Shown piece by piece: positions 12,348 to 63,915 of a stretch of 64,000 nucleotides of DNA. The DNA is taken from NCBI RefSeq assembly GCF_028890115.1, contig NZ_JARCJD010000005.1, forward strand, positions 145,880 to 209,879. Reading direction: 5' to 3'. The position numbers and the translations under genes were made by a program. Source of the DNA: Phaeobacter sp. QD34_24 (GTDB lineage Bacteria > Pseudomonadota > Alphaproteobacteria > Rhodobacterales > Rhodobacteraceae). The notes beneath the pieces are model-generated. The model had not been told where the DNA came from. It ran no database searches and saw only the letters and a list, made by a program, of their open reading frames with translations. Each line of letters starts with the position of its first letter. Position 1 is the stretch's first letter.

Positions 12348-14744
12348 TCAGCCGCGCAGGCTGCCGCCAGTGGCCTTGGTCACCTTGGCAATGATCTTCT
12401 CGCTCACCGCCTCGATGTCCTTTTCCTTCAGCGTCTTGTCCACGGGCTGCAGGCGCACTGTGATGGCCAGGGATTTCTTGCCCTCGCCCAGGCTGCCACC
12501 GATGAATTCGTCAAAGACGCGCACATCCTCGATCAGGGCCTTGTCGGCACCGGCTGCGGCATTGACCAGGGTCAGCGCCTCGACGCCCTCATCCACCACA
12601 AAGGCAAAGTCACGCTCGACCGCCTGCAGGTCGCTGATCGCCAATGCGGCGCGGGTGGCCCCCGCATTGCGCGGCAGCGGCACCTCGTCGGGCCAGATGG
12701 TGAAGCCCACCGCCGGACCCTTGACGCCCATTTCGCTCAGCACCTTGGGATGCAGCTCGCCAAAGACGCCCAGCACCTTTTTCGGCCCCAGGCAGATCTT
12801 GCCGTGGCGGCCCGGATGCCACCACCCCTGCGCGCCGCGCAGGATCTGAACCTTGGCCGGGGCAGCGATGGCGGCCAGAACCGCCTCGATATCGGCCTTG
12901 GCATCGAATGTGTCCACGGGACGCGAGGCGCCATGCACATCCTTGGCACCGGTGCGTCCGACCAAGAGACCAGAGATCAGGTTGTGCTGCTCCCCCGGCT
13001 CCCCGCCATGAAAGGCCGGGCCGACTTCGAACAGAGCCAGGTCCATATAGCCGCGCGCCTGGTTGCGGGCGGCGGCCTGCAACAATCCCGGCAGCAGGGC
13101 GGGACGCATATGGGACATCTCGGAGGAGATCGGATTGGCCAGCATGGTTGCATCGTCACCGCCACCGAACAGCGTGGCCGAGGCCTTGTCGATGAAGGTG
13201 TAGCTGACGATTTCATTGTAGCCGAGGCTGGCCGCGGTGCGCCGGGCCATCTGTTGGCGGCGCTGCTGCGGGGTCATAACCGGTTTCGGAATGCCCGGCG
13301 TCAGACGCTTGAGCGGCTTGCCTTCCAGTTTCGTCAGCGAGGCGATACGGGCGACCTCTTCCACCAGATCGGCCTCGCCCTGAACATCGGGGCGCCAGCT
13401 GGGCACATGGGCCATGTTGCCCTCAAGCCGGAAGCCAAGGCGGGTCAGGGTCTGGCGCTGATCGCTTTCGGGGATATCCATGCCGACCAGCGACTGCACT
13501 CGGCTTGCGTCCAGCTTGTAGGCGCGCGAATGATCCGGCACGTCGCCTGCGATCACCACTTCAGACGGCTCACCGCCACAGAGGTCGAGGATCATCTGGG
13601 TGGCGCGATGCAGCCCTTCCAGGGTGAATTCCGGATCCACGCCGCGTTCGAACCGATAGCGCGCATCCGAGTTGATCTTGAGCGCGCGGCCGGTGGTCGC
13701 GATCTGCACGTGATCCCAGAAGGCGCTTTCGAGGAAGACATCGACGGTCTCCTCGGTGCAGCCGGTTTCCTCGCCGCCCATGATGCCGGCGATGCTTTCG
13801 GGGCCATTGGCGTCCGAAATCACCATCTGGCCCGCGCCAAGGGTGTATTCCTTCTCATCCAGCGCCAGCAGGGTCTCGCCGCCCTTGGCGCGATGAACCC
13901 GCAGATCGCCCGTCACCTTGGCTGCGTCAAAGACGTGCAGCGGGCGGTTCTGGTCGAAGGTGAAGAAGTTGGTGATATCCACCAGCGCCGAAATCGGGCG
14001 CAAGCCGATGGCGGTCAGCCGATCCTGCAGCCACTGCGGGCTGGGGCCATTCTTGACGCCCTTGATCAGGCGGCCGGTGAACAGCGGGCAGCCGTCCAGC
14101 GTGTCTTCGTCGATGGTGACCTTGATCGGGCTTTCGAAATCGCCGGGGATCGCCTCGTATTCGCGGGTTTTCAGCGTGCCCAGACCACGGGCCGCCAGAT
14201 CGCGGGCAATGCCGTAGACGCCCAGCGCATCGGGGCGGTTCGGGGTGATGGCAATCTCGATCATCGGATCGACCTTGGAGGGGTCGTTTTCCGCCAGCCA
14301 GTCGATCAGCCGGTCGCCCACCTCGCCCGAAGGCAGTTCCACGATGCCGTCGTGATCCTCGCCCAGCTCCAGCTCGCGCCAGGAGGCCATCATGCCGTGG
14401 CTTTCGACGCCGCGGATCTTGCCCACCGACAGGGTGATATCAAGGCCGGGCACATAGTCGCCGGGTTTGCACAGAACCACGGTGATGCCTTCGCGCGCAT
14501 TGGGGGCGCCGCAGACGATCTGCTTTTCGCCCTCGTTGGTCATCACGCGGCAGACACGCAGGCGGTCGGCATCGGGGTGCTGCTCGGCGCCCACGACCTT
14601 GGCCAGGGTAAAGCCTTTCAGCGCATCGGCCGGGTTCACGATCTCTTCGACCTCGAGGCCGAGATCGGTGAGGGTTTCGGCGATCTCCGCGACAGAGGCA
14701 TCGATGTCGAGGTGGTCTTTCAGCCAGGAGAGGGTGAATTTCAT
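12348..14744 (-). CDS. pheT: Phenylalanine--tRNA ligase beta subunit
   Basis: 798 aa: MKFTLSWLKDHLDIDASVAEIAETLTDLGLEVEEI... with tRNA-binding, B3/B4, B5 and FDX-ACB domain order. Confidence 0.95.
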   Translation of the reverse strand: MKFTLSWLKDHLDIDASVAEIAETLTDLGLEVEEIVNPADALKGFTLAKVVGAEQHPDADRLRVCRVMTNEGEKQIVCGAPNAREGITVVLCKPGDYVPGLDITLSVGKIRGVESHGMMASWRELELGEDHDGIVELPSGEVGDRLIDWLAENDPSKVDPMIEIAITPNRPDALGVYGIARDLAARGLGTLKTREYEAIPGDFESPIKVTIDEDTLDGCPLFTGRLIKGVKNGPSPQWLQDRLTAIGLRPISALVDITNFFTFDQNRPLHVFDAAKVTGDLRVHRAKGGETLLALDEKEYTLGAGQMVISDANGPESIAGIMGGEETGCTEETVDVFLESAFWDHVQIATTGRALKINSDARYRFERGVDPEFTLEGLHRATQMILDLCGGEPSEVVIAGDVPDHSRAYKLDASRVQSLVGMDIPESDQRQTLTRLGFRLEGNMAHVPSWRPDVQGEADLVEEVARIASLTKLEGKPLKRLTPGIPKPVMTPQQRRQQMARRTAASLGYNEIVSYTFIDKASATLFGGGDDATMLANPISSEMSHMRPALLPGLLQAAARNQARGYMDLALFEVGPAFHGGEPGEQHNLISGLLVGRTGAKDVHGASRPVDTFDAKADIEAVLAAIAAPAKVQILRGAQGWWHPGRHGKICLGPKKVLGVFGELHPKVLSEMGVKGPAVGFTIWPDEVPLPRNAGATRAALAISDLQAVERDFAFVVDEGVEALTLVNAAAGADKALIEDVRVFDEFIGGSLGEGKKSLAITVRLQPVDKTLKEKDIEAVSEKIIAKVTKATGGSLRG

Positions 14745-14894: not shown

Positions 14895-14975
14895 GAGGCC
14901 GCCCGGGTGGGCGCAACGCGCCCGCCATGGGGGCGGGCGGGCGCGTGCCGAGCCGCAAGCGGCCCGGTCGAACTA
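14895..14975 (+). repeat. Degenerate REP-like repeat, copy R4
   Basis: GGGCGCAACGCGCCCGCC-atgg-GGGCGGGCGGGCGCG hairpin region, loosely related to the family. Lies between the pheT start and the orphan gene stop. Confidence 0.3.
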
Positions 14976-15395
14976 TTCGAACCGAAGGAACCTCAAATCA
15001 ACGTCATGTGTTTCGAGACCAAGCTCGTTCCGAAGCTCATTACGTAGTGCAATCAGCACCGGCTTAATATCGGCATGACCAGCATTCGCCACAAAGCCAC
15101 CAATGCTCTCATGCGCCGCCCGGCAAACATCTTCTGAACCAAACAGCTGAATATCTGCCAATGCCCCTTCCATGTTTTCGCGTAGTTGCTTCGCTTGCTC
15201 GTCGTCTGACGGTTTTCGTTCAACACACGCCTCCAATCGACGATAGGCATCAATCAAGAAATCCACATTGCGTGCACGCTTCTCGGAAATCAGTTCTTTG
15301 CGGATTGAAGTTTTGAAAACAATCAAAGATCCAATAATGGCAAAAAGCGGGGGAACAAAGAGGTTAAGCAGCGTAATGAGTGTATCAGAATCCAT
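14973..15395 (-). CDS. Orphan hypothetical membrane-anchored protein with atypical low GC, inserted between pheS and pheT
   Basis: 140 aa from MDSDTLITLLNLFVPPLFAIIGSLIVFKTSIRKE...: one N-terminal TM helix plus a helical soluble domain. GGGGAAGGTG RBS. Visibly AT-richer (~47% GC) than the flanking pheS/pheT (>62%). No recognised family. Confidence 0.5.
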   Translation of the reverse strand: MDSDTLITLLNLFVPPLFAIIGSLIVFKTSIRKELISEKRARNVDFLIDAYRRLEACVERKPSDDEQAKQLRENMEGALADIQLFGSEDVCRAAHESIGGFVANAGHADIKPVLIALRNELRNELGLETHDVDLRFLRFE

Positions 15396-15469: not shown

Positions 15470-16543
15470 TCAACGGCTGAGGCCGCCATGCAGGGCCGGC
15501 ACGTCAAGGCAGCTGAAGCCATAGTGGCGCAGCCAGCGCAGGTCGCTGTCAAAGAAGGCGCGCAGATCGGGGATGCCGTATTTCAGCATCGCCAGACGGT
15601 CGATCCCGATGCCGAAGGCAAAGCCCTGGTATACGTCGGGGTCGATCCCGCCGGCGGCGATCACCTTGGGATGCACCATGCCGGAGCCGAGGATCTCCAT
15701 CCAGTCGTCACCCTCGCCGATCTTCAGCTGGCCATTGTCCCAGGAACAGCGGATATCCACCTCGGCCGAAGGTTCGGTGAAGGGGAAGTGCGAGGCGCGG
15801 AAGCGCAGCTCCACGTCGTCCACCTCGAAGAAAGATTTGACGAATTCCTCCAGCACCCACTTGAGGTTCGCCATCGAGATGTCTTTGTCCAGCGCCAGGC
15901 CTTCGACCTGGTGGAACATCGGCGTATGGGTCTGGTCGTAGTCGGCACGGTAGACACCGCCGGGGCAGATCACCCGCAGGGGCGCGCCCATCTTTTCCAT
16001 CGACTGGATCTGCACAGGAGAGGTGTGGGTGCGCAGCACATGCGGCGGGCGATCATCGCCTTCCGCGCGGTGCATATAAAACGTGTCCATCTCGGCGCGG
16101 GCCGGGTGGTGGCCGGGGATATTCAGCGCGTCGAAGTTGTACCAGTCGGTCTCGATGCGCGATCCTTCGGCGACCGAAAAGCCGAGTTCGGCAAAGATCG
16201 CGGTCAGCTCTTCGCTGGCCTGGCTGATCGGATGCAGGCTGCCCTGGCGCTGGGGCCGGGTCGGCAGGGTCACATCCAGCCACTCGGTGCGCAGGCGCTC
16301 ATCCAGCGCGGCATCGGCGAGTGCCGCCTTCTTCGCGACAAGGGCCGAGTTGATCTCATCCTTCAGCGCATTGAGCGCCGGCCCCACGGTCTGGCGTTCC
16401 TCGGGCGTCATCTTGCCCAATTCGCGCATCTTCAGGGCCACCTCGCCCTTCTTGCCGACGGCGGCGAGGCGGATCGCCTCCAGCGCGTCCTCGTCCTGGG
16501 CATCGGCAATCTGCCCCAGATATTTTGCCTTAAGATCGTCCAT
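15470..16543 (-). CDS. pheS: Phenylalanine--tRNA ligase alpha subunit
   Basis: 357 aa; class II aaRS motifs ([17 protein letters not shown]..., GSGMVHP). Confidence 0.95.
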
Positions 16544-16742
16544 GACGGTCCCCTGAATTTTGCTTGCCTTCTGCTACCACACGCGCCGCCAAACGCAAGG
16601 GCGGCTGAGCCCCCTGCCCCATAGCAGGGCTGCATCCGTTGCGACAAAACCTGCCGTCCCGCCCCTCGATAGCTTGCAAGCGTGAGCCAGACGCCCCATC
16701 TTGGCGCCAAGATCCCAGATCATTTTTTCAGAGATTGATAGT

Positions 16743-17789
16743 ATGAGTAATCCCGTCACCCGCAAGCTGACCACGATCCTGGCCGCCGACGCCGAGCGCT
16801 ACAGCGCAGCGATGGAGGCCGATGAGGTAGCAACCTATGCCGCGCTCAAGGCGGCGCGAGCGGTATTCTTCAAACTGATCGACCGTCACGGTGGACGGGT
16901 TGCCAATACAGCGGGCGACGGGCTGATCGCCGATTTCCCTTCGGTTGTCGAAGCCACCCATTGCGCCATCGAGGTGCAGCAGGAACTGGCCGCCGAGCAT
17001 AGCCTGCTCAGGTTCCGCATCGGCATCCACCTAGGCGATGTGATCTGCGACGGGGATGACCTGCTGGGCGATGGCGTCAACCTGGCGTCGCGGCTGCAGA
17101 CCATGGCCGAACCCGGCGGCATCCTGATCTCGCGCCAGGTCTACGACCAGGTTCACAACAAGCTGACCATCGGGTTCGAGTACTTAGGCGAAAAATCCGC
17201 CAAGAACCTCCCCGAAGAGGTCTCGGTCTATCGGATCACCACGGCAGCTGCCACTGCGGACCGGTTTGAGAAGGTGAAACCCCAGGTCAGACCGGCCCAA
17301 GCCAACAAACCAGACCGCCCGGCACGACCCGAGAAGGTCGCGCATGTCTGGGATGGCGACCGGACAGACCAAGGGGCCCAGCCTGCCCCGACAGCCCCAT
17401 CTGAAGGGCGCTCTGCCGCGCAGTCGGCCCTGCAGGCCGCAAAAGAGGCTTTTGGCGGGCTGAAGACACCGACCCAGCGCCTATACCTCTTTGGCGTTGG
17501 CGGCGCCGTGCTGCTGAACCTGGTCACCGGAGGCCGTTTCTGGCCCGCCTGGCCGGTCCTCGCCCTTGCCCTGGTTTACGGGCAGATCAACGGCAACGGG
17601 GCATTGGGGTTCAAACCCTTCCTGTCCATTCCCGTTCGGATCTGGATCCTGGCTTTGTTCCTGATCTGCATCAACTTGATGACCACAGCCTTCCCCTGGG
17701 CGATCTTCCCTGTTGCGGCACTGGTGTTGGGCGGTCGGGTCATGGGCGGGCGAGGTGAGCCTGGTGCAGAACCCGAAGAACAGGCCTGA
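16743..17789 (+). CDS. Class III adenylate/guanylate cyclase domain protein with C-terminal transmembrane segment
   Basis: N-terminal CYC domain (ILAADAERYSAAMEADEVATYAALKAARAVFFKLIDRHGGRVANTAGDGLIADF...RIGIHLGDVI...GDGVNLASRLQ). A proline/alanine-rich linker follows. Two to three hydrophobic helices at the C-terminus. Start trimmed to MSNPVTRKL. Confidence 0.75.
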   Translation: MSNPVTRKLTTILAADAERYSAAMEADEVATYAALKAARAVFFKLIDRHGGRVANTAGDGLIADFPSVVEATHCAIEVQQELAAEHSLLRFRIGIHLGDVICDGDDLLGDGVNLASRLQTMAEPGGILISRQVYDQVHNKLTIGFEYLGEKSAKNLPEEVSVYRITTAAATADRFEKVKPQVRPAQANKPDRPARPEKVAHVWDGDRTDQGAQPAPTAPSEGRSAAQSALQAAKEAFGGLKTPTQRLYLFGVGGAVLLNLVTGGRFWPAWPVLALALVYGQINGNGALGFKPFLSIPVRIWILALFLICINLMTTAFPWAIFPVAALVLGGRVMGGRGEPGAEPEEQA

Positions 17790-17813
17790 TCCCCGGACAT
17801 CACCAGAAACGAA

Positions 17814-17860
17814 AGAACCCGCCGGATCACTCCGACGGGTTCGGCTGTCTTTCGACAGAA
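17814..17860. terminator. Bidirectional terminator region between the cyclase gene and rplT
   Basis: GAACCCG-(ccggatcactccga)-CGGGTTC then CTGTC-tttc-GACAG followed by a T-rich tract. The genes are convergent. Confidence 0.45.
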
Positions 17861-17890
17861 TGTCTTTGACGCCTGACTTAGGCGGCCAGC

Positions 17891-18256
17891 TTAGGCAGCC
17901 AGAGCGGACTGGGCCTGCTTAACGATCGCACCGAAGGCTTCGGGCTCGTGCACGGCGAGATCCGCCAGGACCTTACGGTCGACTTCGATACCGGCCAGGT
18001 TAAGGCCGTTGATGAAGCGCGAGTATGTCAGCGATTCGTCGTGGCTGCGGACAGCGGCGTTGATGCGCTGGATCCACAGGGCGCGGAAGTTACGCTTGCG
18101 CGCCTTACGGTCGCGGGTTGCGTACTGGTTGGCCTTGTCGACGGCCTGACGGGCAACCTTGAAGGTATTCTTGCGGCGGCCGTAGTAACCTTTGGCTGCC
18201 TTGATGACCTTCTTGTGACGGGCGTGAGTTGTGGTACCACCTTTAACGCGGGACAT
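17891..18256 (-). CDS. rplT: 50S ribosomal protein L20
   Basis: 121 aa: [42 protein letters not shown]... Confidence 0.95.
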
Positions 18257-18271
18257 GTGTCAAATCTCCTC

Positions 18272-18472
18272 TTAGCGGTCGTAGGGCATGAAGCCCTTGA
18301 CGATCTTGGCGTCGGGGGCGGACAGGGTCGTGGTGCCGCGGGCATCACGGATGAATTTCTTGTGACGTTTGATCATGCCGTGGCGCTTGCCGGCCTGACC
18401 TGCCATCACCTTACCGGTGGCGGTCACCTTGAAGCGCTTTTTGGCGCTCGATTTCGTCTTCATTTTGGGCAT
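18272..18472 (-). CDS. rpmI: 50S ribosomal protein L35
   Basis: 66 aa: [66 protein letters not shown]. The track ORF 18272..18802 is an upstream-extended artifact. Confidence 0.9.
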
Positions 18473-18587
18473 TTCCGTCTCCTTCAATGCAGGTTCGGTA
18501 GATACGCGACTCGGCATGCCACTCCGGCCGGCCGCGTGAACAGGGTCGCCGTTTACGAAAACAGGGTGACAAGGGCAAGCGGTTTCT

Positions 18588-18809
18588 TCAGGAAAAGCGC
18601 CCCAGAACGTTGAAAAACACCTCGGGCAGTTCCTCCAGCCGGTATCCGCCCGGCCGCATCCGCGCCGCATAGAGGATGAAACCGGCGCTGATGACCAGCA
18701 ACAAAGCCCCAAGGCGCGGCCATCTTCCATCGCTATAGGCCGAAACGAGCGAGAGAACTGCAAGACACCCCAGGAAAAACCCCAGAACGATCGCCAGATC
18801 ACTGTCCAT
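18588..18809 (-). CDS. Small hypothetical membrane protein (two predicted TM helices)
   Basis: 73 aa: [55 protein letters not shown]... Strong purine-rich RBS (GGGAAGGGGGA) 34 nt after the pyk stop. Lies between pyk and rpmI. Confidence 0.4.
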
Positions 18810-18843: not shown

Positions 18844-20289
18844 CTATTCCGGGTCGGTGCTGTAAATCAAACGCTCATCACAAGGCGCCACGCGCAGGAT
18901 ATTGGTGGTGCCGGGCACGTTGAAGGGCACACCGGCGGTGACCACGATCTGATCGGTCTCTGTTGCAAAACCGCCCGCACGGGCCGCACGGGCCGCATTG
19001 ACGACCGCGCCCTTGAAGCGTTCCTGGCCGCCGGTCACCACGCAGTGGCAGCCCCAGCTAAGCGCCAGGCGCCGCGCGGTTCCCTCCAACGGGGTGAGCG
19101 CGATGATCGGCACGCCGGGGCGTTCGCGCGCGGTCAACAGCGCGGTGGTGCCGCTTTGGGTGAAACAGCAGATCGCCTTGATATCGGTCTTCTCGGCAAT
19201 CTCACGCGCGGCCGAAACGATGGCATCGGCAATGGTGCTGCCCTTGGAAGACCGCGACGAGGCGATGATCTGCGCGTAGGTCGGGTCCATCTCCACCTCG
19301 GTGGCGACATTATCCATGGTGCGCACCGCCTCTACCGGATAGTGGCCGGCAGCGGATTCCGCGCTCAGCATGATGGCATCTGTCCCCTCGTAGATCGCGG
19401 TGGCCACGTCCGAGACCTCGGCGCGCGTCGGCATCGGGCTTTCGATCATGCTTTCCAGCATCTGCGTGGCGACGATCACCGGCTTGGCGGCTGCACGGCA
19501 TTTGCGCACCAGCCGCTTCTGGATCGGCGGCACCGCTGAAACGGGCAGCTCCACCCCCAGATCACCCCGCGCCACCATGATCCCATCCGAGGCATCCAGG
19601 ATATCCTCGAATTGCTCCACGGCAGAGGGTTTTTCGATCTTCGACAGAACCGCAGCACGGCCATCGACCAGCCCCTTGGCTTCGAACACGTCCCTGGCCC
19701 GCTGCACAAAGGAGAGAGCAATCCAGTCCACCCCCAGGGTGCAGGCGAATTCCAGATCCTCGCGATCCTTTTCCGACAGCGCCGCCAGCGGCAGGACCAC
19801 ATCTGGCACGTTCACCCCCTTGCGATTGGAGATGGTCCCTCCGGTCACGACGACGCAATCGGCAAAATCGCTGCCGCAGCGTTCCACCCGCAGGCGGATC
19901 TTGCCGTCATTGACCAACAGATGCGCGCCGGGTTCCAACGCCTGGAAAATCTCCGGGTGCGGCAGGCAGACCCGCGCCGCATCGCCATCGGTGGGGTCCA
20001 GATCCAGGCGGAAGGCGGCCCCTTCTGCCAGATCCTCGGCGCCATTTGCAAAGACGCCAACCCGCAGTTTCGGTCCCTGCAGGTCGGCCAGAATGCCGAT
20101 GGAGCTGTCCAGGTCCTTCTCGACCTGACGGATGATCTGGTGCTTCTCCGCGATCTCTGCATGGGTGCCGTGGGACATGTTCAGCCGGAACACATCGGCG
20201 CCGGCCTCATGCAGGGCGCGGATCATGTCATAGGTTTCGGAGGCGGGTCCCAGGGTGGCAACAATCTTCACGCTGCGTGAACGTTTCAT
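18844..20289 (-). CDS. pyk: Pyruvate kinase
   Basis: [57 protein letters not shown]... Start trimmed from the track ORF to the ATG at 20289. Confidence 0.9.
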
Positions 20290-20421
20290 GGGCTGTGTCC
20301 TTCCGACATCTGGTCTGTGACAGGCGGGTGTTACCGCAAACACTGTTGAGGGTGCTTATGACCCAATTCCTATTTTGCCGCAACTGCCCTAAAGGTATCG
20401 TCAACAAAAGATGACGGACTT

Positions 20422-34947: not shown

Positions 34948-35023
34948 GGGGCCTTAGCTCAGCTGGGAGAGCGCCTGCATGGCATGCAGGAGGTCAGCGG
35001 TTCGATCCCGCTAGGCTCCACCA
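34948..35023 (+). tRNA. tRNA-Ala (anticodon GGC)
   Basis: GGGGCCTTAGCTCAGCTGGGAGAGCGCCTGCATGGCATGCAGGAGGTCAGCGGTTCGATCCCGCTAGGCTCCACCA. Cloverleaf with 7-bp acceptor stem, anticodon loop AT-GGC-AT, T-loop GGTTCGATCC and an encoded CCA. Confidence 0.9.
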
Positions 35024-62213: not shown

Positions 62214-63089
62214 TTAGGCGGATTGCCGCCCCTCCACGCTGGCCGCGATCTTGCTGTCGTCCTGTGCCGACTCGAAGGCCAGCATGGCCCGTTTGACCCC
62301 CGTGCCCCAATGATATCCGCCCAGGGCGCCGGATTTGCGCAGGGCGCGGTGACAGGGAATGAGCCAGCTGACCGGGTTCTTGCCCACCGCCGTCCCCACC
62401 GCCCGCACCGCACGGGGGGAGCCTATGGCGCGCGCCAGCTCGGAATAGGTGGTGACATGGCCCGAGGGGATGCGCAGCAGCGCCTCCCAGACCTTGATCT
62501 GAAGCGGCGCCCCGATCATATGCAGCGCCGCCTCCCCGCGTTGGGAAAAGATGGCCTCTGCCAGCGGACGCAGCCCCATGGGATCCTCGACGAACGTCGC
62601 ACTGGGCCAGCGGGCGCGCATGTCGGCCATGGTTGGTTCAGCCCCGACCTCTGCCGCGAAGGCCAGCCCGCAGATGCCTTTTTCGGTGCCCATGACCAGA
62701 GCCAGGCCAAAGGGGCTGTCAAACCAGCCCCAGCGGATCTGCAGCCCCGCGCCTTTGCGGGCATATTCGCCGGGGCTCATCGCCTCCCAGCGCAGGAAGA
62801 GATCATGCAGGCGTCCCGATCCCGACAGCCCCACCGCATGGGCGGTCTCTAGCGTGGAAAACCGCTCCTGCAGCAGCGTCTTTGCGTGACCCAGCCGCAG
62901 ATATTGCTGATAGCGCTTGGGAGAGACGCCCACCCAGGCCGAAAACACCCGCTGAAAATGGGCCGGACTCATCTGCATACGCGCGGCCAGCATCTCAAGG
63001 CTCAGATCTTCCCCGCCCGCGTCGATCACCTCGATCGCACGCCGGATGACGCCGTAGTGATAGCTGTCTTCTTGCGCCTGACCGGTCAT
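62214..63089 (-). CDS. ada: Bifunctional AraC-type regulator / methylated-DNA--protein-cysteine methyltransferase (Ada)
   Basis: 291 aa from MTGQAQEDSYHYGVIRRAIEV...; an AraC HTH (LSLEMLAARMQMSPAHFQRVF) plus an MGMT domain with active site IPCHRA. Confidence 0.8.
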   Translation of the reverse strand: MTGQAQEDSYHYGVIRRAIEVIDAGGEDLSLEMLAARMQMSPAHFQRVFSAWVGVSPKRYQQYLRLGHAKTLLQERFSTLETAHAVGLSGSGRLHDLFLRWEAMSPGEYARKGAGLQIRWGWFDSPFGLALVMGTEKGICGLAFAAEVGAEPTMADMRARWPSATFVEDPMGLRPLAEAIFSQRGEAALHMIGAPLQIKVWEALLRIPSGHVTTYSELARAIGSPRAVRAVGTAVGKNPVSWLIPCHRALRKSGALGGYHWGTGVKRAMLAFESAQDDSKIAASVEGRQSA

Positions 63090-63270
63090 TGCCTGCTCTC
63101 CTGCGTTTTGCACTCCGGAGAGAGTAACCAAGAGCTGCGCGCCAAACGACCCGGATTTTGCGCTTTGCTGCCGATGCCCCTGTTCCAGAGGCAACAGGTC
63201 GCAAGCCCTGCGAAACCAAGGAGACGTTTTTCGTTTGCGTGGTCGGACACGGATCGGCAAAAGGGGCGGC

Positions 63271-63915
63271 ATGGCAAAGCAACTCGATTACCACACCCTG
63301 CGAGAGATCTTTTCGCGGTTTCAGGCAGCCGAGCCGGAACCCAAGGGCGAACTGGACCATGTGAATGTCTACACATTGGTGGTGGCCGTCGCCCTGTCGG
63401 CACAGGCCACGGACGCAGGCGTCAACAAGGCCACGCGCGAACTGTTCAAGATCGCGGACACCCCGCAAAAGATGCTGGACCTCGGCGAAGAGGGGCTGAT
63501 CGAACATATCAAGACGATCGGCCTGTTCCGCAACAAGGCCAAGAACGTCATCAAGATGGCCCGCATTCTGGTCGATGATTACGGCGGCGAAGTGCCAAAC
63601 TCCCGCGCCGCGCTGCAATCGCTGCCGGGGGTGGGTCGCAAGACCGCCAATGTGGTTCTGAACATGTGGTGGCACTACCCGGCGCAGGCGGTGGATACCC
63701 ATATCTTCCGGGTCGGCAACCGTTCCGGCATCTGCCCCGGCAAGGATGTGGACGCGGTCGAGCGCGCCATCGAAGACAATATCCCGGTCGATTTCCAGCA
63801 GCACGCCCATCACTGGATGATCCTGCACGGCCGTTATCACTGCAAGGCACGCAAGCCGATGTGCGGCACCTGCCTCATCCGCGACCTGTGCCAATACGAG
63901 GACAAGAACTTATGA
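63271..63915 (+). CDS. nth: Endonuclease III
   Basis: 214 aa: MAKQLDYHTLREIFSRF...; HhH-GPD motif (LPGVGRKTANVVL) and a C-terminal 4Fe-4S Cys cluster (CKARKPMCGTCLIRDLC). Confidence 0.9.
   Translation: MAKQLDYHTLREIFSRFQAAEPEPKGELDHVNVYTLVVAVALSAQATDAGVNKATRELFKIADTPQKMLDLGEEGLIEHIKTIGLFRNKAKNVIKMARILVDDYGGEVPNSRAALQSLPGVGRKTANVVLNMWWHYPAQAVDTHIFRVGNRSGICPGKDVDAVERAIEDNIPVDFQQHAHHWMILHGRYHCKARKPMCGTCLIRDLCQYEDKNL

Follow-up and report, generated by a model that had tools for sequence, protein, structure and literature searches.

A class III nucleotidyl cyclase with a C-terminal tandem-hairpin membrane anchor between rplT and pheS of Phaeobacter

What is a nucleotidyl cyclase gene doing on the plus strand between rplT and pheS, and is an operon broken by its being there? 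The question arises in a 64,000-nucleotide stretch of the genome of Phaeobacter sp. QD34_24 (contig NZ_JARCJD010000005.1, positions 145,880 to 209,879; hereafter the window, with position 1 as its first letter). A first-pass annotation, made from the sequence alone, had drawn attention to a plus-strand gene amid the minus-strand genes pyk, rpmI, rplT, pheS and pheT, convergent with rplT and divergent from pheS, and the map of open reading frames (ORFs) shows exactly this layout (Table 1).

Here we present an analysis of this gene, its product and its surroundings. The reading that we favour, and hold to be moderately probable, is that of a tethered adenylyl cyclase whose output is set at the level of transcription. 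The protein would be a homodimeric class III (IIIc-like) adenylyl cyclase, located on the inner surface of the cytoplasmic membrane and making cyclic AMP (cAMP) there. Its membrane part would most likely serve to tether the enzyme and help it to dimerise: with the catalytic domains restricted to a two-dimensional space, pairing of two of them would become possible. Output would probably be set mainly by transcription, an RpoH-type promoter predicting induction by heat or by oxidative or envelope stress. To be set against this reading, a search for enzymatic, topological or transcript data on any family member found none.

The plus-strand ORF ends at position 17789 and begins at either TTG 16701 or ATG 16743. 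The sequence evidence places the true start at the ATG, because the homologues all open with MSxxVxRKLTT at the equivalent Met and because an identical NCBI protein of 348 residues (100% identity; 'adenylate/guanylate cyclase domain-containing protein [Phaeobacter sp. QD34_3]') is annotated from the same position. The alternative TTG falls within the predicted cyclase promoter. In composition (G+C about 0.62; G+C at third codon positions (GC3) 0.74) the gene is similar to those adjoining it.

The catalytic domain

The class III cyclase catalytic domain proposed in the first-pass annotation is borne out by both profile and fold. The Pfam check suggested there gave a significant match to PF00211 (35.3 bits, cut-off 21.9; E = 1.1e-8), in which 124 residues are aligned against 141 profile positions. 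PF00211 is also matched by all of the 95 homologues on which we built an AlphaFold2 model of the protein. In this model the catalytic domain has predicted local distance difference test (pLDDT) values above 90 throughout residues 1–166. It sits directly at the N-terminus, from residue ~7, with no upstream sensor or transducer segment. The top Foldseek match of the model is the cyclase domain of Rv1900c (1ybu_B; TMt 0.91, root mean squared deviation 1.6 Å, 31% identity), and the matches, which include Rv1900c, Ma1120, CyaB and CyaC, have a probability of 1.00 and TMt values of up to 0.91. The best NCBIfam match is the cyclase part of LipJ/Rv1900c, and the nearest PDB sequences are 3mr7 from Silicibacter pomeroyi (E = 1.7e-25) and Ma1120 (E = 5e-14), with Rv1900c also among them.

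We mapped the catalytic positions by alignment to wild-type Ma1120 and to its K101E/D157G/A167Y mutant. The motifs singled out in the first-pass annotation (ILAADAE, TAGDGLIADF and GDGVNLASRL) are present and contain catalytic residues, including the metal-binding Asp residues. D16 and D59 (metal-binding), D106 (purine-contacting), N113 and R117 (transition-state) and R92 are each invariant in 95 of 95 homologues. A pseudo-enzyme reading was rejected on the ground of this invariance. The canonical substrate Lys is replaced by Asn55 in 94 of the 95 homologues, so that the canonical Lys–Asp pair is absent; apart from this exchange the catalytic residues are intact, and the degeneracy for which the first-pass annotation had allowed was not found. 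The dimerisation arm comprises seven residues (DVICDGD) between the conserved Gly98 and Asp106, with the β4–β5 turn at 104–105. A seven-residue arm is the criterion for class IIIc as given by Linder (PMC4626032), and by its short arm the domain classes as IIIc-like.

Judged by these residues, the window protein is probably an active enzyme that makes cAMP. The point against this reading is Asn55, which, as far as sequence goes, leaves the nucleotide specificity undecided. The family-wide replacement of the purine-selecting Lys by Asn would be understandable if the product were another nucleotide: cGMP, or a pyrimidine cyclic nucleoside monophosphate (cNMP) as made by Pycsar cyclases, for which the catalytic domain also gives weak PADLOC matches to PycC (best E = 1.3e-6). 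We consider this quite improbable. The adenine-contacting D106 is invariant, the PycC score of 25.7 bits lies below the generic PF00211 score and speaks of generic class III similarity, and the gene stands in a housekeeping setting, not in a defence island. Moreover, no effector with a cNMP-binding domain adjoins the cyclase in any of the 80 best loci from a scan, one genome per species, for relatives carrying the ANTAGD motif. Rv1900c, too, reportedly carries Asn (Asn342) where the substrate Lys would stand, keeps the Asp, and is said to be an active and mainly adenylyl cyclase with guanylyl side activity. A Pycsar role in particular was rejected in view of the weak PycC matches and the missing effector gene: Pfam scans of 20 other window genes, on both sides of the cyclase, found no cNMP-binding domain. 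Nor does the window hold a second cyclase homology domain.

Linker and membrane anchor

The order of the remaining parts is also as the first-pass annotation had it: a Pro/Ala-rich linker follows the catalytic domain and the membrane anchor comes last (residues 243–335), the reverse of the usual membrane cyclases. Of the 76 linker residues 17 are Ala and 8 are Pro. Residues 188–222 have pLDDT values below 50, followed by a short low-confidence helix at residues 224–237. Across the 95 homologues the linker varies from 35 to 106 residues in length (median 56), and column identity falls from 80% in the catalytic domain to 34% in the linker and 49% in the transmembrane (TM) region.

The two or three TM helices of the first-pass annotation have to be corrected to four, arranged as two hairpins (Table 1). 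The turn motifs of the hairpins are related (NLxTGGxFWxxWP in the first, NLFSWSGxxWxxWP in the second), and an hhalign comparison of the two gives a probability of 96.3% (E = 1.8e-9). Sequence comparison thus indicates that the hairpins are homologous and arose by duplication of a single 2TM-like hairpin; homologues of about 245–250 residues carry one hairpin only. The Pfam family 2TM (PF13239) matches residues 302–330 of the window protein at E = 0.008 and 16.7 bits, below its cut-off of 24.8 bits. It is matched by 24 of the 95 homologues at E ≤ 0.01 (best 1.6e-5), and two database homologues carry precomputed labels for both PF13239 and PF00211. On these profile matches the hairpin unit appears to be distantly related to 2TM. 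A phmmer search with the TM region alone against 1.84 billion representative proteins returned only its own cluster.

Charge is distributed unevenly along the anchor. The mean count of Lys plus Arg is 0.22 and 0.03 in the two turns, and 1.3–1.8 ahead of TM1, between the hairpins and in the tail. This pattern fits a predicted N-in/C-in topology, in which the catalytic domain and the C-terminus are cytoplasmic and the turns periplasmic.

How much the anchor does beyond anchoring is where the favoured reading is most exposed. We assign it the role of a tether because the linker is unstructured, poorly conserved and three-fold variable in length, and we think it unlikely to be an allosteric transmembrane sensor as in N-terminally anchored cyclases. 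The hairpins are, however, more strongly conserved (49% column identity, Trp/Pro motifs invariant) than passive anchoring would require, which counts against a mere tether and hints at a specific interaction or a sensing role. The tandem 2TM module might thus be a sensor or regulator, responding to the lipid composition, tension or potential of the membrane or to another membrane protein that partners it, and controlling both dimerisation and activity. Its turns hold conserved aromatic and Pro motifs, in which W270 and W319 are invariant and W267 and P323 nearly so; its column identity exceeds that of the linker; and the hairpin duplication has been kept across many lineages. Pfam 2TM modules, too, also occur in sensor histidine kinases. 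We nevertheless regard such a sensor as rather unlikely. A disordered, little-conserved linker of 35–106 residues makes a poor conduit for conformational signals, the window protein has no coiled-coil, HAMP or cyclase-transducer element, and variants with a single hairpin exist.

The cyclase promoter

A sigma-70 promoter scan of positions 16400–18000 gave no match, and the cyclase promoter emerged only when the 130 nucleotides upstream of the cyclase start codon were aligned across 23 genomes. TTG, CCA and TT are invariant at fixed spacing in all 23, and the rest of the spacer is unconserved (CTTGCA-N16-CCCAYnT). In the window, transcription from this site is predicted to start at about 16710 and to give a leader of 33 nucleotides; an Rfam search of the entire window revealed neither a leader nor a riboswitch in the neighbourhood of the cyclase gene.

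The motif has the layout of an RpoH (sigma-32)-type promoter. RpoHI and RpoHII promoters of Rhodobacter sphaeroides are marked by C-37, TTG at -36 to -34, C-13, A-12, T-11 and T-9 (Dufour et al. 2012, PMC3441632), and the conserved positions of the cyclase motif coincide with these, the consensus being that of a different genus. The cyclase site has TTG at -36 to -34 and CCATnT at -14 to -9 with the right spacing between them. A position weight matrix made from 101 RpoHI-dependent R. sphaeroides promoters (Table S2 of PMC3441632) gives the site 16.3 bits, compared with a median of 12.8 and a third quartile of 14.4 among the training promoters, and ranks it first of 127,942 window positions. 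In related loci the equivalent site ends 26–49 nucleotides ahead of the cyclase start codon; among about 26,000 positions it ranks in the top five in 22 of 24 such loci, and first in 13.

Several observations weigh against RpoH control. A nearly equal matrix score (16.2 bits) occurs at position 62493 on the plus strand, within a coding region and opposite the coding strand of 62214–63272, where it could have arisen by chance or mark an internal or antisense promoter. The matrix score from a single genome is therefore not decisive. By chance alone the window should contain the simple consensus pattern 0.78 times, and it is the conservation across genomes that, in our assessment of the sequences, carries the argument. 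One subgroup (CCCACTTT) has C at -11, an exchange that reduced the RpoHI-dependent activity of a test promoter (PMC3441632).

The motif also resembles, as RpoH motifs in general come near to, the alphaproteobacterial sigma-70 consensus CTTGAC-N17-CTATAT. It could thus be a housekeeping sigma-70 promoter, and the cyclase constitutive. Read as TTGCAA-N17-CATCTT the site suits sigma-70 spacing, and the target table of R. sphaeroides RpoHI/RpoHII contains no cyclase. To this reading we give a real but lesser chance. The CC at -14/-13, ahead of A-12, is invariant in the 23 genomes; many of the RpoHI-dependent promoters in Table S2 have -10 elements of the CCCAT type, whereas RpoHII promoters favour C-14 T-13; and the ranks under the RpoHI matrix, both in the window and in the relatives, are those given above. 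RpoH dependence of the cyclase is hence a prediction that we consider reasonably probable.

The position between rplT and pheS

The arrangement is not peculiar to this genome, as the synteny check suggested in the first-pass annotation made plain. The scan for the ANTAGD signature found at least 567 loci encoding relatives, and genomic context was drawn from the best 80. pheS lies on the same 13-kb stretch in 26 of these (25 genomes, one counted twice), from Pseudophaeobacter, Tritonibacter, Epibacterium, Shimia, Roseobacter sp. MED193, Arenibacterium, Parasedimentitalea, Phaeobacter sp. 11ANDIMAR09 and metagenome-assembled genomes, and is directly upstream and divergent in 23 of the 26. At least 24 roseobacter genomes of about eight genera have the divergent pheS/cyclase pair, with a spacer of 156–247 bp wherever it was measured (21 of 21). 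Distant homologues (Hoeflea, Hyphomonadaceae, Caulobacteraceae and Granulosicoccus) are located elsewhere than at pheS, and no recurrent neighbour or operon partner was found in the 54 loci without an adjacent pheS, which are mostly from outside the roseobacters.

The other side of the cyclase is far more variable: in relatives it is 0.1 to 3 kb from rplT, the interval being occupied by unrelated genes. This cargo includes, recurrently, a Hint_2-domain protein, and also NnrS, a ChaC-like protein, a Na:Ala symporter, a 546-residue orphan, other orphans and a small RcsF/YbjQ-like lipoprotein. A look-up of the exact L20 protein of the window led to ten places with the same wider synteny. Eight of them are without the cyclase (six have a 161-bp rplT–pheS gap and two have an ORF for an 88-residue orphan in between), and the other two carry a 340-residue cyclase that is 75% identical to the window protein. 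In this roseobacter lineage the rplT–pheS gap is, on the evidence of these loci, a variable slot that accepts unrelated genes.

The eight places without a cyclase and the differing cargo would be expected if the gene had recently been inserted by horizontal transfer and had thereby disrupted an rpmI-rplT-pheS-pheT operon. We regard this as highly improbable, given the same divergent pair at the same range of spacing in so many genera, the native composition of the gene and the state of the relatives without a cyclase, in which rplT is already followed by a terminator and pheS preceded by a promoter-like element, leaving no operon to disrupt. Because the pheS/cyclase pair is common to many genera, we favour an old insertion with later losses: the pair would be old and passed on vertically in many genera, and some close relatives lack it.

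The terminator and the promoter-like element deserve separate description. The first-pass annotation had proposed a bidirectional terminator shared by rplT and the cyclase. The hairpin (17815–17842) is indeed shared, but is a canonical terminator on the rplT strand only, where a U-run comes after a perfect 12-bp stem. Read on the cyclase strand, the stem contains a C·A mismatch; it has no U-run directly behind it, and GGCUGUCUUUCG and another small hairpin come next. RNA folds of the two strands give z-scores of -3.35 and -2.77, and the hairpin may also slow or stop cyclase transcripts. An equivalent hairpin and T-run follow rplT in 11 relatives, and in all the cyclase-less relatives examined. 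Ahead of pheS, the promoter-like element lies about 28 nucleotides upstream of the pheS ATG (16543) and has TGG, at the extended -10 position, as the last three bases of its spacer. It is kept in all 21 related pheS–cyclase spacers, and in cyclase-less relatives reads CTTGCT-N17-TAGCAC.

Since the gap of the cyclase-less relatives already contains a terminator for rplT and a promoter-like element for pheS, no operon appears to have been broken: rplT and pheS are predicted to be separate transcription units with or without the cyclase. The first-pass annotation was right that the rplT–pheS linkage is split physically (the two genes are adjacent, 161 bp apart, in six of the ten places with an identical L20); the split is one of position, and divides no operon. 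For annotation, the lesson is that the rplT/pheS junction of this lineage is a terminator–promoter gap that tolerates cargo, not an operon junction, and that the position of the cyclase gene is therefore by itself unremarkable.

Of note, the cyclase diverges much faster than its neighbours and out of step with them. It is 51% and 49% identical in MED193 and 11ANDIMAR09, where pheS is 95% identical, and 69% identical in Epibacterium ulvae, where pheS is 90–91% identical. Fast evolution of the linker and TM region could account for this, as could allelic replacement at the same site.

Table 1 Coordinates (window positions) and evidence for the features of the cyclase locus
Feature	Positions	Strand	Evidence
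Cyclase coding sequence, 348 residues, stop codon included	16743–17789	+	ORF; PF00211; GC3 0.74; identical NCBI protein
Catalytic cyclase homology domain, residues 1–166	16743–17240	+	Structure model; Foldseek; residue conservation
Ala/Pro-rich, largely disordered linker, residues 167–242	17241–17468	+	Model; homologue alignment
First TM hairpin: TM1 243–262, turn GGRFWPAWP, TM2 269–287	17469–17603	+	Model; hydropathy; motif
Second TM hairpin: TM3 298–313, turn TTAFPWA, TM4 321–335	17634–17747	+	Model; hhalign
Predicted RpoH (sigma-32)-type promoter of cyclase, CTTGCAAGCGTGAGCCAGACGCCCCATCT	16673–16701	+	Cross-genome conservation; matrix score
pheS promoter-like element CTTGCG-N17-TAGCAG	16571–16599	-	Conserved in related spacers
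Intrinsic terminator of rpmI-rplT, perfect 12-bp stem (17842–17815), then UUCUUUCGUUUCU	17805–17842	-	Terminator scan; RNA folds
pheT	12348–14744	-	
pheS, divergent neighbour	15470–16543	-	ORF; Pfam families on called gene
rplT (L20), convergent neighbour	17891–18256	-	ORF; PF00453 on called gene
rpmI	18272–18475	-	
pyk	18844–20343	-	

Other features of the window

Between pheS and pheT lies a minus-strand ORF of 140 residues (14973–15395; ATG at 15395, ribosome-binding site GGGGAAGG), annotated as hypothetical protein PXK00_05795. Its G+C content is about 0.48, compared with about 0.63 around it, and its product has an N-terminal TM helix. Searches of this ORF gave no Pfam, PHROG or PADLOC match, and 5.8 billion proteins contained 35 homologues, the best 43% identical, in scattered taxa. 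None of the related loci has it in the corresponding spacer, and it looks like a horizontally acquired orphan within the pheST unit. A G+C-rich inverted repeat near GCGCCCGCCCGCCCCCATGGCGGGCGCG, spotted by eye at 14900–14970, comes directly after this orphan ORF and before pheT.

A second small minus-strand ORF, of 73 residues (18588–18809), is situated between pyk and rpmI. Its product has two hydrophobic segments and no Pfam match, and the ORF is called at the same place in all ten identical-L20 loci; it probably encodes a conserved small membrane protein. The sole RNA gene detected in the window by Rfam and ARAGORN is that of a tRNA-Ala (GGC) at 34948–35023 on the plus strand.

Comparison with known systems

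Class III cyclases are among the best-studied signalling enzymes, and the bacterial membrane forms are understood as an N-terminal receptor, a transducer and a catalytic domain, in this order. The window cyclase is an uncharacterised architectural variant of this well-known class; the family to which it belongs is large and widespread, and is generically annotated in the databases. We searched the literature for the C-terminally anchored architecture of class III cyclases and found no papers on it; further searches, on the 2TM domain and on cAMP and adenylate cyclases in roseobacters and Sinorhizobium meliloti, found nothing specific. To our knowledge, cAMP signalling in marine roseobacters is almost unexplored, and the predicted RpoH promoter would provide a simple link from stress sigma factors to cAMP in these bacteria. 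A more far-reaching proposal would make the window protein the first example of a large family of tail-anchored class III cyclases: their tandem 2TM hairpins would sense membrane state, and in roseobacters RpoH, the sigma factor of heat and oxidative stress, would switch them on. This proposal strikes us as improbable. If it were true, the family would link envelope or proteotoxic stress to cyclic-nucleotide signalling, and the exchange of Lys for Asn might alter the nucleotide made.

In its catalytic domain the window protein is an ordinary member of class IIIc, with Rv1900c and Ma1120 as its nearest counterparts. Rv1900c (LipJ) of Mycobacterium tuberculosis (PDB 1ybt and 1ybu), its best structural and NCBIfam match, shares the compact class IIIc-type domain and the short dimerisation arm. 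However, Rv1900c has an N-terminal α/β-hydrolase domain, is soluble and lacks a membrane anchor; it also has His in place of the transition-state Asn (PMC4886424), a position at which the window protein keeps Asn113. The short-arm domains of Ma1120 (Mycobacterium avium) and 3mr7 likewise align with the window protein in the metal-binding Asp, the substrate Asp and the Arg. Both have the canonical Lys (K101 in Ma1120; VKTTGDG in 3mr7), whereas the window family has Asn; Ma1120 has Ala where the window protein has Asn113, and neither has C-terminal TM helices.

At the promoter, the likeness to the RpoHI/RpoHII promoters of R. sphaeroides (PMC3441632) is one of layout (C-37, TTG at -36 to -34, CCAT at -14 to -11, T-9). 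The R. sphaeroides regulon tables, which are those of a different genus, list no cyclase, and the regulon membership of the window gene is a prediction.

The likeness to PF13239 lies in each hairpin, a pair of short TM helices with a Trp/Pro-rich turn; here the hairpin is duplicated in tandem and fused behind a cyclase. N-terminally anchored cyclases, such as Rv1625c with its 6TM anchor and CyaC of S. meliloti, are membrane-bound homodimers with catalytic domains that face the cytoplasm (PMC4821796, PMC10463352). By contrast with the N-terminal TM bundle and structured transducer of the Rv1625c type, the window protein has the reversed order, a disordered linker and two 2TM hairpins in place of a 6TM bundle. 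It thus departs from the membrane cyclases described in its order of parts, in having no structured transducer and in its tandem 2TM anchor: the family turns the receptor–transducer–catalytic order around and has a floppy tether where the transducer would be. If the tether model is true, membrane confinement alone can be an organising principle for such enzymes; if it is wrong, the tandem hairpins would represent a new type of membrane input module.

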